DNA of 64,000 nucleotides. Origin: an uncultured Clostridia bacterium (GTDB lineage: Bacteria > Bacillota > Clostridia > Christensenellales > UBA1242). Shown here one piece after another: positions 25,225 through 25,671 of this stretch. The stretch covers positions 2,277-66,276 of the forward strand of contig CALWTH010000054.1 of NCBI GenBank assembly GCA_944384405.1, given 5' to 3'. The number at the start of each line of letters is the position of its first letter. The stretch's first letter is position 1. Made by a program: the position numbers and the translations under genes. The notes below the pieces were generated by a model. It was given only the letters and a program-made list of their open reading frames with translations, searched no databases and was not told the DNA's origin.

Positions 25225-25290
25225 TTACATTTTTTCCTCCTTTAATTTAAAAAATTTAAAATAGCGTTTGAAATGAGTAATATTATTAAG

Positions 25291-25319
25291 GCTGATACAA
25301 TGAGTTTAAGTATCAGCCA
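25291..25319 (-). terminator. 9-bp perfect hairpin between the leader region and the surface-protein operon (candidate attenuator/terminator)
   Basis: Minus strand TTTT-GGCTGATAC-TTAAACTCATT-GTATCAGCC-TTAATAATATT; the U-tract is weak. Confidence 0.3.
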
Positions 25320-25349
25320 AAAGATAAATTTTACAATGTTTCACCTCCT

Positions 25350-25671
25350 TATCTATTAGATTGCCTTTCTGGTATGACTGCAGGTGAAAGGCGACTGTAA
25401 TACCTGCTAGTCACTGGTACGGCACTTTTTGGAAAAGGAAGGGACAATATTATTCGAATAGAGGTACACTGGGATAAATGCCGTTGAACCCATAATTGTT
25501 GGGAGAAGTGGAATAGTTTAACGAGATTACCACATCGCTCAAGTGTGTAGTTTTAAAGTAAAGTAGAACAAACTATTTTAAATGCAAATAGGCTACTTGC
25601 ACGACTTGGTTTCAAGCCAAGGCAAAAGCAAAACATTTTGTACTGTTTGAAATTGAATTCCATACTTCCTC
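25350..25671 (-). other. ORF-poor, G+C-richer structured leader (candidate ncRNA, or ssDNA origin/packaging signal)
   Basis: No ORF of 60 aa or more on either strand. Hand count is about 43% G+C over 25351-25470. Interleaved helices: GCCTTTC (25363-25369) with GAAAGGC (25386-25392), and GACTGCAGGT (25376-25385) with ACCTGC-T-AGTC (25402-25412). Confidence 0.3.

Follow-up and report, generated by a model that had tools for sequence, protein, structure and literature searches.

What function is served by the 447 bases that separate the gene for a 128-amino-acid (aa) HNH_3 endonuclease (25672-26058, minus strand) from the gene for a 537-aa membrane-anchored protein in a small integrated element (~12-13 kb) of an uncultured Clostridia bacterium? 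The gap lies within the 64,000-nucleotide (nt) stretch of DNA analyzed here (the window), and a first-pass annotation had described it as a G+C-richer leader, poor in open reading frames (ORFs), with two interleaved helices, for which a regulatory leader, a processive antitermination RNA, and a single-stranded DNA (ssDNA) origin or packaging region were proposed. Among these roles the regulatory leader fitted best. The gap is read here, with a probability of about one half, as a cis-acting post-transcriptional mRNA leader that would park ribosomes, stabilize the downstream mRNA and/or gate its translation, and be remodeled by translation of an upstream ORF; such a leader would most likely set the amount of the membrane and surface protein of the element. 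As an RNA motif, the region is absent from Rfam; its functional kind is familiar, some of its details are unusual, and its known distribution is narrow.

Homologous loci were collected from ENA/Logan metagenome contigs by exact-protein look-ups with the HNH protein and with homologues of it and of the 537-aa protein. The window sequence was unchanged in four assemblies. Window-type variants (L002, L004, L018, L021, and L033) were 75-81% identical across the gap, and in more distant loci (L025, L028, L030, L032, L035, and L037) the HNH protein was 56-75% identical. The region had no blastn match in phage or plasmid collections. When GTDB genomes, JGI metagenomes, and IMG/VR were scanned with DNA patterns, either nothing or two chance matches inside high-G+C coding regions (L017 and L024) came back, and the HNH search in IMG/VR returned distant HNH domains only.

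The evidence that carries the leader reading begins with core module B, in which a hairpin (S1) is interleaved with a second helix (S2). S1 consists of 12 bp with a bulged A (25408) and is formed by the 5′ arm GUGACU-A-GCAGGU (25402-25414) and the 3′ arm ACCUGCAGUCAU (25374-25385). S2 is formed by GCCUUUC in the 3′ part of the S1 loop (25386-25392) and by GAAAGGC (25363-25369), with the linker ACCA (25370-25373) between the 3′ arms of S1 and S2. The first-pass annotation had paired, in plus-strand letters, GCCTTTC (25363-25369) with GAAAGGC (25386-25392) and GACTGCAGGT (25376-25385) with ACCTGC-T-AGTC (25402-25412); both pairings were confirmed at these coordinates and in interleaved order, and the second belongs to a hairpin longer than described.

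On the single sequence this fold was weak: the region had z-scores of -1.96 (sense strand) and -2.70 (antisense strand), and the best 45-nt hairpin was equalled by 8 of 200 dinucleotide shuffles. The helices are thus marginally better than chance on one sequence, and far better than chance only through the homologous loci. There, both S1 and S2 were conserved and covarying. In hand alignments of 10 variants, S1 comprised 17 pairs, with 100% of the cells paired and 11 of the 17 pairs changed on both sides (116 Watson-Crick pairs, 11 G-U pairs, and no mismatches), and S2 comprised 9 pairs, with 91% of the cells paired and 3 of the 9 changed on both sides; controls in which the partners were slid by 1-3 columns were ~40% paired. 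Covariation of both helices was accordingly seen in the order 5′a-5′b-3′a-3′b of an H-type pseudoknot, as read from this hand-made alignment. The fold was assigned to the gene-sense (minus) strand because the G-U pairs of S1, and those of helices Pa and E described below, would become A-C mismatches if the other strand folded. The best duplex between loop and tail lay directly after ACCA in every variant, and not on the Shine-Dalgarno (SD) sequence that follows (shuffle p 0.001-0.026 per variant). A covariance model built from window-type sequences only matched L030 (E 2e-7), L037 (2e-4), L025 (2e-3), and L032 (0.15), and the same model found no second copy of the module in the window. In L028 and L035, unrelated sequences are able to adopt the same hairpin-plus-loop/tail arrangement; ACCA, which 10 variants keep immediately 3′ of the stem, is absent at that place in these two.

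S1 and S2 may alternate, or may coexist only with S1 partly open, and partial melting or alternating conformers are likely. With the first 7 nt of S1 masked, as they would be by a ribosome in the act of terminating, the S2 hairpin became the predicted fold in 8 of 9 variants (-8 to -12.8 kcal/mol). S1 starts 3-6 nt past the HNH stop codon in L025, L028, L030, L032, and L037. Three other interpretations of the module were dropped. A nested helix UGCC/GGCA around S1, suggested by single-sequence folds, was not conserved in L004, where S2 is. A stimulator of frameshifting or readthrough after the HNH stop codon was rejected for want of a conserved extended frame; all frames close within or just past the pseudoknot and differ between loci, and the pseudoknot of the window lies ~260 nt from the HNH stop. 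A role of S1 as intrinsic terminator was rejected as well, since it has no U-tract and is not called by the terminator scan. As a separate observation, UACCA occurs twice, after helix E and after S1 (25415-25418 and 25370-25373, minus strand), and is complementary to UGGUA of the 5′ block (25528-25532). This UGGUA lies in GGUGGUA, the same heptamer as in the T-box sequence, and both partners are CCGG in L035; a tertiary or alternative pairing, or coincidence, could account for it.

The second line of evidence is a strong SD that always follows the core module after 6-14 nt, through a spacer that is A/U-rich in all variants. It is complementary over 8-10 nt to an anti-SD sequence of the Bacillota type. 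With the canonical Bacillota anti-SD tail assumed, its duplex was -18.3 kcal/mol in the window and -13.6 to -20.1 kcal/mol across all variants, compared with a median of -7.1 and a best value of -12.0 kcal/mol for 44 long ORFs of the window. The first-pass annotation had noted the box GTTTCACCTCCTT (minus strand AAGGAGGTGAAAC) at 25338-25350 as SD-like; the box is present, and its description understated it, for it is the real ribosome-binding site (RBS) of a 31-aa ORF with an AUU start (ORF2). In L025, L032, and L037 the SD is an orphan, followed by nothing more than ATT-TAA, TTG-ATT-TAA, or TTG-CTT-TAG; a small hairpin comes next, and the real gene with its own SD lies 55-70 nt further along.

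ORF2 is conserved behind the SD in the window and in L002, L004, L018, L021, L033, and L030. Two codons upstream stands an in-frame UGA, and ATG, GTG, and TTG are all missing from the frame, so that ORF2 must start at the AUU, whose ATT is kept in 7 variants; a UUG-UAA start-stop (25331-25336) overlaps this AUU. The variable columns of ORF2 are distributed over codon positions as 9/2/11, with 8 purely synonymous codon columns, and its peptide is a single hydrophobic helix for which Pfam and PHROGs returned no family. Its synteny with the large structural gene is fixed in all loci. A type I toxin-antitoxin system, whose toxin part the peptide would fit, was rejected, as no promoter- or terminator-like site was found on the plus strand in 25000-25700. 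Within ORF2 lies hairpin H, the stem of which is either fixed or changed to G-U at synonymously free sites while neighboring codons vary; in L025, L032, and L037 the corresponding position, non-coding there, is taken by small hairpins of other sequence. The perfect 9-bp hairpin of the first-pass annotation is real, one base away from where it had been placed; it sits inside ORF2 and not, as a terminator, ahead of the real RBS of the operon. It has no U-tract and is not called by the terminator scan, and its candidacy as intrinsic terminator was dropped. The SD of the 537-aa gene begins two bases past the stop codon of ORF2. In the window alone, the start of this gene reads ATG-TAA-ATG (25222-25230, minus strand), a start-stop directly before the real ATG, owing to a 4-nt insertion relative to L002, L004, and L018.

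Upstream of the core lies a folded 5′ domain that hardly varies among the window-type loci. Its first part, a small interleaved pseudoknot-type block with helices Pa and Pb, starts 12 nt past the stop codon of a 36-aa ORF (ORF1) in the window and 5-12 nt past it across the loci, and is duplicated in tandem in L021 and L033. The 4-bp core of Pa was paired in all 10 copies, its one variable pair being CG in 6, UG in 3, and AU in 1. The pairs of Pb vary as UA:7/CG:3 and GC:7/CG:1/GU:1. The GGUGG/CCACC helix covaries to GCGG/CCGU and CCGG/CCGG, the other helix is YGAG/CUCG, and the loop UCUCGUUAAACUA is invariant. Pairing in the block was 86%, compared with 36-61% in slid controls. The block also occurs as a leader of another gene: in L030 (3440-3485) the SD of the HNH gene is directly preceded by a copy (AGAGCGAUGGUGG...CUCU...CCACC) that has a compensatory AGAG/CUCU helix. 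The middle domain that follows contains a CCCA/UGGG hairpin and a long-range helix E, which varies only by G-U-compatible changes and is accordingly plausible. Helix E encloses a C/U-rich tract of variable length, with 0-4 G in 44-63 nt in every variant.

The coding content of the gap had been underestimated. As the first-pass annotation had stated, the gap does not fully contain any ORF of at least 60 aa, and yet two small ORFs (36 and 31 aa) under coding selection fill ~45% of what had been called ORF-poor. ORF1 directly follows the HNH gene and is presumably coupled to it in translation; its SD AGGAGG (25668-25673) overlaps the HNH stop codon (25672-25674). It was found in 7 distinct variants; in six of them its variable columns at codon positions 1/2/3 numbered 8/5/23, and 13 codon columns were purely synonymous, compared with 0 in each other frame. 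Small conserved proteins had been named beforehand, next to unconserved helices, as one of two findings that would speak against an RNA element, with the ORF starting MEFNFKQYKMF as the example; that ORF, ORF1, is a conserved coding gene by the 8/5/23 pattern, and this half of the objection was borne out. Between ORF1 and ORF2 there remain ~215 nt in which every reading frame is broken by indels. In L035, a diverged ORF1 homologue stands ahead of the same RNA block. A search of 1.8 billion representative proteins returned one true homologue of ORF1 (P0049, 58 aa), and Pfam and PHROGs had no family for ORF1. P0049 reads through into a block-like back-translation (…LRAKRYIDIIPVE…), and in some relatives ORF1 may overlap the RNA block. 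Hairpins inside ORF1, seen in single-sequence folds, were dropped when they proved not to be conserved in L002.

The G+C content of 25351-25470 had been given as about 43% and was found to be 41.7%. The claim that it is richer than its surroundings held: the window mean is 32.8% and the immediate flank (25225-25350) 24.6%, and the 537-aa gene reaches 44-47% locally, so that the contrast is real but local. On the sense strand, C exceeds G at 25400-25600. Rfam cmscan on both strands, which the first-pass annotation had called for, gave no match above noise in the region. At gathering thresholds of Rfam 15, the whole window yielded only a T-box and tRNAs elsewhere, and in E-value mode the best matches of the window region and of the L021 and L030 variants were noise of the eukaryotic snoRNA type (E at least 0.085, far below cut-offs). 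The tRNA/tmRNA scan likewise had no match in the region.

Table 1. Positions, in window numbering, of the parts of the leader and of the regulatory and integration genes of the element
Feature	Position	Strand	Basis or remark
Core module B	25363..25414	-	Covariation; holds the two interleaved helices of the first-pass annotation
ORF1, 36 aa (MEFNFKQYKMFCFCLGLKPSRASSLFAFKIVCSTLL)	25553..25663	-	Coding substitution pattern
5′ block, small interleaved pseudoknot-type element	25507..25542	-	10 copies compared
Block helix Pa, UGAG with CUCG	25538-25541 with 25522-25525	-	
Block helix Pb, GUGG with CCAC	25530-25533 with 25508-25511	-	
Middle domain	25419..25503	-	Sequence blocks invariant in 6 variants
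CCCA/UGGG hairpin	25500-25503 with 25489-25492	-	
Helix E (plausible), ACGGCAU with GUGCCGU	25478-25484 with 25419-25425	-	
C/U-rich tract	~25431-25477	-	
Strong SD AAGGAGGUGA	25341..25350	-	13 nt after S2
ORF2, 31 aa, hydrophobic (MVKFIFWLILKLIVSALIILLISNAILNFLN)	25242..25337	-	AUU start at 25335-25337, 6 nt after SD
Hairpin H, 9 bp (GGCUGAUAC/GUAUCAGCC)	25290..25318	-	ORF2 codons 7-16
Start of the 537-aa gene	25222..25243	-	SD AAAGGAGG at 25236-25243; ATG at 25222-25224
Integrase	26944-28131	+	
cI-like helix-turn-helix (HTH) repressor	26479-26916	+	
cro-like HTH gene	Upstream of the HNH gene	-	

From 5′ to 3′, the leader contains ORF1, the folded 5′ domain, the S1/S2 core, the strong SD, the AUU/UUG-UAA with ORF2 and hairpin H, and the RBS of the large gene, and the operon is ordered as cro-like gene, HNH gene, leader, and membrane/surface-protein genes. 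The sole good promoter match on the minus strand (TTGACA-17-TATTGT, 26485-26457) lies at the cro-like gene, ~1.1 kb from the motif, and a scan of 15.9-26.5 kb for minus-strand intrinsic terminators in the ~11-kb operon found none, apart from weak matches inside genes. Given one promoter match and uninterrupted minus-strand genes, the simplest reading of the gap is as a leader internal to a single long operon.

In the mechanism proposed here, 30S or 70S ribosomes would dock at the strong SD, whose start is weak or non-productive. Docking would limit the output of ORF2, and the docked ribosome would shield the downstream structural mRNA from 5′-to-3′ decay, in the manner of the STAB-SD and ribosome-stall 5′ stabilizers of Bacillota. 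Since the S1/S2 module and the block begin 3-12 nt past an upstream stop codon, a ribosome terminating there would open the 5′ arm, the alternative helix would form, and the state of the leader would thereby depend on whether the upstream ORF is translated. As at the T4 gene 32 operator, a protein acting in trans might nucleate on the pseudoknot and add a further layer.

Several known systems resemble parts of this arrangement. STAB-SD blocks RNase J1 through 30S binding (PMC4113751), and related ribosome-dependent 5′ stabilizers in Gram-positive bacteria are listed in PMC3997798. The leader shares with such stabilizers (cry3A STAB-SD, ermC stall site, hbs, and SP82 polypurine) an SD-like sequence with extended complementarity to the 3′ end of 16S rRNA in an untranslated or barely translated leader, an SD without a real ORF in three lineages (L025, L032, and L037), and the context of a low-G+C Gram-positive host (T-box and SpoIIAA/AB-type genes in the window or contig). 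The strong 16S complementarity that marks a STAB-SD was thus found in every variant (-13.6 to -20.1 vs. a median of -7.1 kcal/mol, on the assumed anti-SD tail). The leader differs from these stabilizers in having a conserved hairpin/pseudoknot 5′ of the SD, in that the SD of the window also serves the conserved AUU-start ORF2, and in lacking sequence homology. Leader peptides and ribosome-driven remodeling (erm/cat leaders, MifM-yidC2, and coupling in RNA phages) are a further parallel, since here a short conserved upstream ORF ends 5-12 nt before a structure, which a ribosome at its end must open; the leader differs from them in lacking a known arrest motif or inducer, and the ORF1 peptide matches no family.

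The T4 gene 32 operator consists of a pseudoknot, an A/U-rich unstructured stretch, and an RBS, and a homing-endonuclease ORF abuts the pseudoknot (PMC535899). As in the T4/RB69 operator, a pseudoknot stands here 5′ of a short, UAAA-containing, A/U-rich unstructured stretch and an RBS, a layout found in all variants, and an endonuclease gene abuts it (segG in T4; here the HNH gene, with S1 3-6 nt past its stop). The pseudoknot is much larger here (S1 of 11-17 bp), with a 4-nt linker, and the downstream gene encodes a small membrane protein and not a single-strand-binding protein (SSB). The regulated gene of the gene 32 type, an SSB repressor, has no counterpart here: downstream are the 31-aa hydrophobic ORF and the 537-aa membrane-anchored protein, and an SSB search among the small proteins of the element was negative.

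Several points weigh against the leader reading. The distinct variants number only ~10-12, all from one element family, and pairs were counted on alignments that had been fitted to the structure by hand. By the usual loop-length rules, the ACCA linker of 4-5 nt is presumably too short for a canonical coaxial H-type knot over an S1 of 11-17 bp. In window-type loci no ORF ends beside S1, so that remodeling by a ribosome would there concern the block only. The SD is unpaired in both the S1 and the S2 state, and an effect of the fold on ribosome access is not evident. The long-range pairing of CACYUCU with the SD (anti-SD) predicted by RNAalifold shows one-sided changes and no compensation. Lastly, every functional step of the model is inferred.

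Among the alternatives, a sensor RNA is unlikely. On this proposal one or more blocks would form a small pseudoknot aptamer for a metabolite or for a protein of the element, with ORF1 as a candidate, and binding would decide whether the pyrimidine-rich segments, CCACYUCUCC and the G-free tract, are available to sequester the SD. The block does recall the small H-type riboswitch aptamers (preQ1-I/II, SAM-II, and fluoride) in size and topology, having ~40 nt, two short interleaved covarying helices, an A-rich third loop (UUAAACUAU), invariant loop nucleotides with UCUCGUUAAACUA unpaired, and occasional tandem arrangement in 1-2 copies; it differs in the 3-4 nt between the 5′ arm of Pb and the 3′ arm of Pa. 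The L030 copy, in which CCACC stands beside GAGGUG directly upstream of the HNH SD, and the RNAalifold pairing of CACYUCU with the SD also speak for sequestration. That anti-SD/SD pairing, however, lacks compensatory change, the distal block copies have no anti-SD-like tail, and no Rfam aptamer scored above noise. The distribution is very narrow, no ligand-related genes lie downstream, and the family-wide core (S1/S2 with the SD) occurs without the block in L025, L032, and L037.

It is also unlikely that S1/S2 with or without the invariant tandem block constitutes a new class of RNA device of mobile elements or phages. Such a device would be either a two-state switch operated by a ribosome or a protein, in which a strained pseudoknot of hairpin loop and 3′ tail directly behind a stop codon would sense translation of the upstream gene and park a ribosome on an orphan super-SD, or an RNase J1-resistant knot like the viral exonuclease-resistant RNAs (xrRNAs).

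There is a small chance that the module is a processing or stability element, or a processed small RNA, in which S1 (12-17 bp) would be a cleavage site of the RNase III, RNase Y, or RNase P type that separates early from structural mRNA or frees a stable small RNA. A nuclease specific for double strands would need just such a long, perfect stem whose sequence is free to vary, and the hairpin followed directly by ACCA in 10 variants resembles a tRNA minihelix. Phage SP82 reportedly couples RNase III sites with a polypurine stabilizer (Hue et al. 1995, as cited in PMC3997798). The covariation of S2 is not explained by a simple cleavage site, however; ACCA is missing from that place in L028 and L035, and no tRNA-like match was obtained. 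This alternative overlaps the leader reading and does not exclude it.

Control at the level of transcription is quite improbable. ORF1 would act as leader peptide and the G-free tract as a Rho-loading (rut) site, or the fold as a processive antiterminator, deciding whether polymerase reaches the structural genes. The C-rich, almost G-free, and presumably unstructured 44-63 nt after a short translated ORF, and the C>G skew of the sense strand at 25400-25600, would suit a rut site; yet the tract is short for one and is bracketed by helix E, and distant loci keep the core without the tract and without ORF1. The processive antitermination RNA of the first-pass annotation would have no minus-strand intrinsic terminators to override in the ~11-kb operon, and neither EAR nor put-like nor other antitermination RNAs were matched.

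The remaining proposal concerns the nature of the element itself. Downstream of the gap on the minus strand, the 537-aa protein with its N-terminal membrane anchor is followed by proteins of 410, 171, and 467 aa, the last carrying DUF285 and Flg_new domains. Pfam and PHROG searches recognized no capsid, terminase, Zot/pI, or rolling-circle Rep in the element, and its replication protein is of the DnaD/replisome-organizer type. A Logan contig (L023, SRR20303003, 2476-7872) has a classic inovirus layout, with a small OB-like ORF, a terminator, a 58-aa transmembrane ORF, proteins of 623 and 712 aa, and Zot. The 623-aa protein of this contig shares 53% identity with the 537-aa protein of the window and nothing else is common to both elements, which, from the sequences, suggests exchange of a host-recognition protein between unrelated elements. 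An f1-like ssDNA origin or packaging region, with the hairpins of the packaged sense strand acting as packaging signal or complementary-strand origin of a filamentous or rolling-circle replicon, is very unlikely: it is favored by a cluster of strand-specific hairpins that spans a few hundred bases of a small mobile element, as in the f1/M13 intergenic region and on the coding-sense strand that inoviruses package, by the homologue in a Zot-encoding contig, and by the lack of capsid and terminase genes, but the element has no detectable Zot/pI or rolling-circle Rep, L023 lacks the motif, G-T wobbles are tolerated at 11 positions, and the motif, unlike an inovirus intergenic region, lies between the HNH gene and the structural genes, overlaps two ORFs, and has as its constant partner the SD with a start codon, an mRNA feature.

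Other features of the locus were recorded as follows. The element adjoins a cluster of six tRNA genes (28263-28880, minus strand), namely those for Tyr, Thr, Phe, Asp, Met, and Pro, directly beside the integrase; the attachment site probably lies in or beside tRNA-Tyr. The opposite end of the element may be marked by a hairpin at 14645-14668 that resembles a bidirectional terminator. A 402-aa protein (gene at 19234-20442, minus strand) has two N-terminal transmembrane helices, a Walker A motif (GEPGTGKT), and a Walker B motif (VWFEDE), and is conserved in 17 clusters. It has no match in Pfam, PHROG, PDB, or phage records and no likeness to Zot, including that of L023; it could be the export or assembly ATPase of the element. 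The AlphaFold2 model of this ATPase, with a predicted local distance difference test (pLDDT) score of 62.7, was too low in confidence for a fold search and was not used. At the far end of the minus-strand genes are a DnaD-like replication organizer, a DUF4417 nuclease, and a metallopeptidase; the region 15100-16520 (minus strand) of the window holds the DUF4417 nuclease-like gene (E 6.5e-58) and the putative zinc metallopeptidase, an unusual cargo for a small integrative element. In L018 (2057-2563) and L021 (2049-2531), an extra gene of 160-168 aa is inserted between the HNH gene and ORF1, and the N-terminal transmembrane region of its product resembles that of the large proteins (…YFAVPKVL.K.W.EI…); in these two loci the ORF1-RNA-ORF2 cassette stays with the large gene and not with the HNH gene. 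A T-box leader lies at 35681-35893 of the window (plus strand; Rfam RF00230, 107 bits), and SpoIIAA/AB-sigma genes lie on the same contig (L001); together they point to a low-G+C Bacillota host.

If the leader reading is true, the region would give a small integrated element a compact and modular means of running regulatory and membrane/surface genes at very different levels from one promoter, combining a switch helix close to a stop codon, an SD stronger than those of nearby host genes, a conserved AUU start, and a start-stop mini-ORF. The practical value is modest, that of a testable leader for work on mRNA stability and translation in Gram-positive bacteria. The locus further contributes two micro-proteins (36 and 31 aa) that are unannotated and escape gene callers, and serves as a warning that AT-rich "gaps" are not to be read as non-coding. 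Finally, it draws attention to a family of integrative elements without a capsid, carried by uncultured low-G+C bacteria and absent from existing phage, plasmid, and genome collections.

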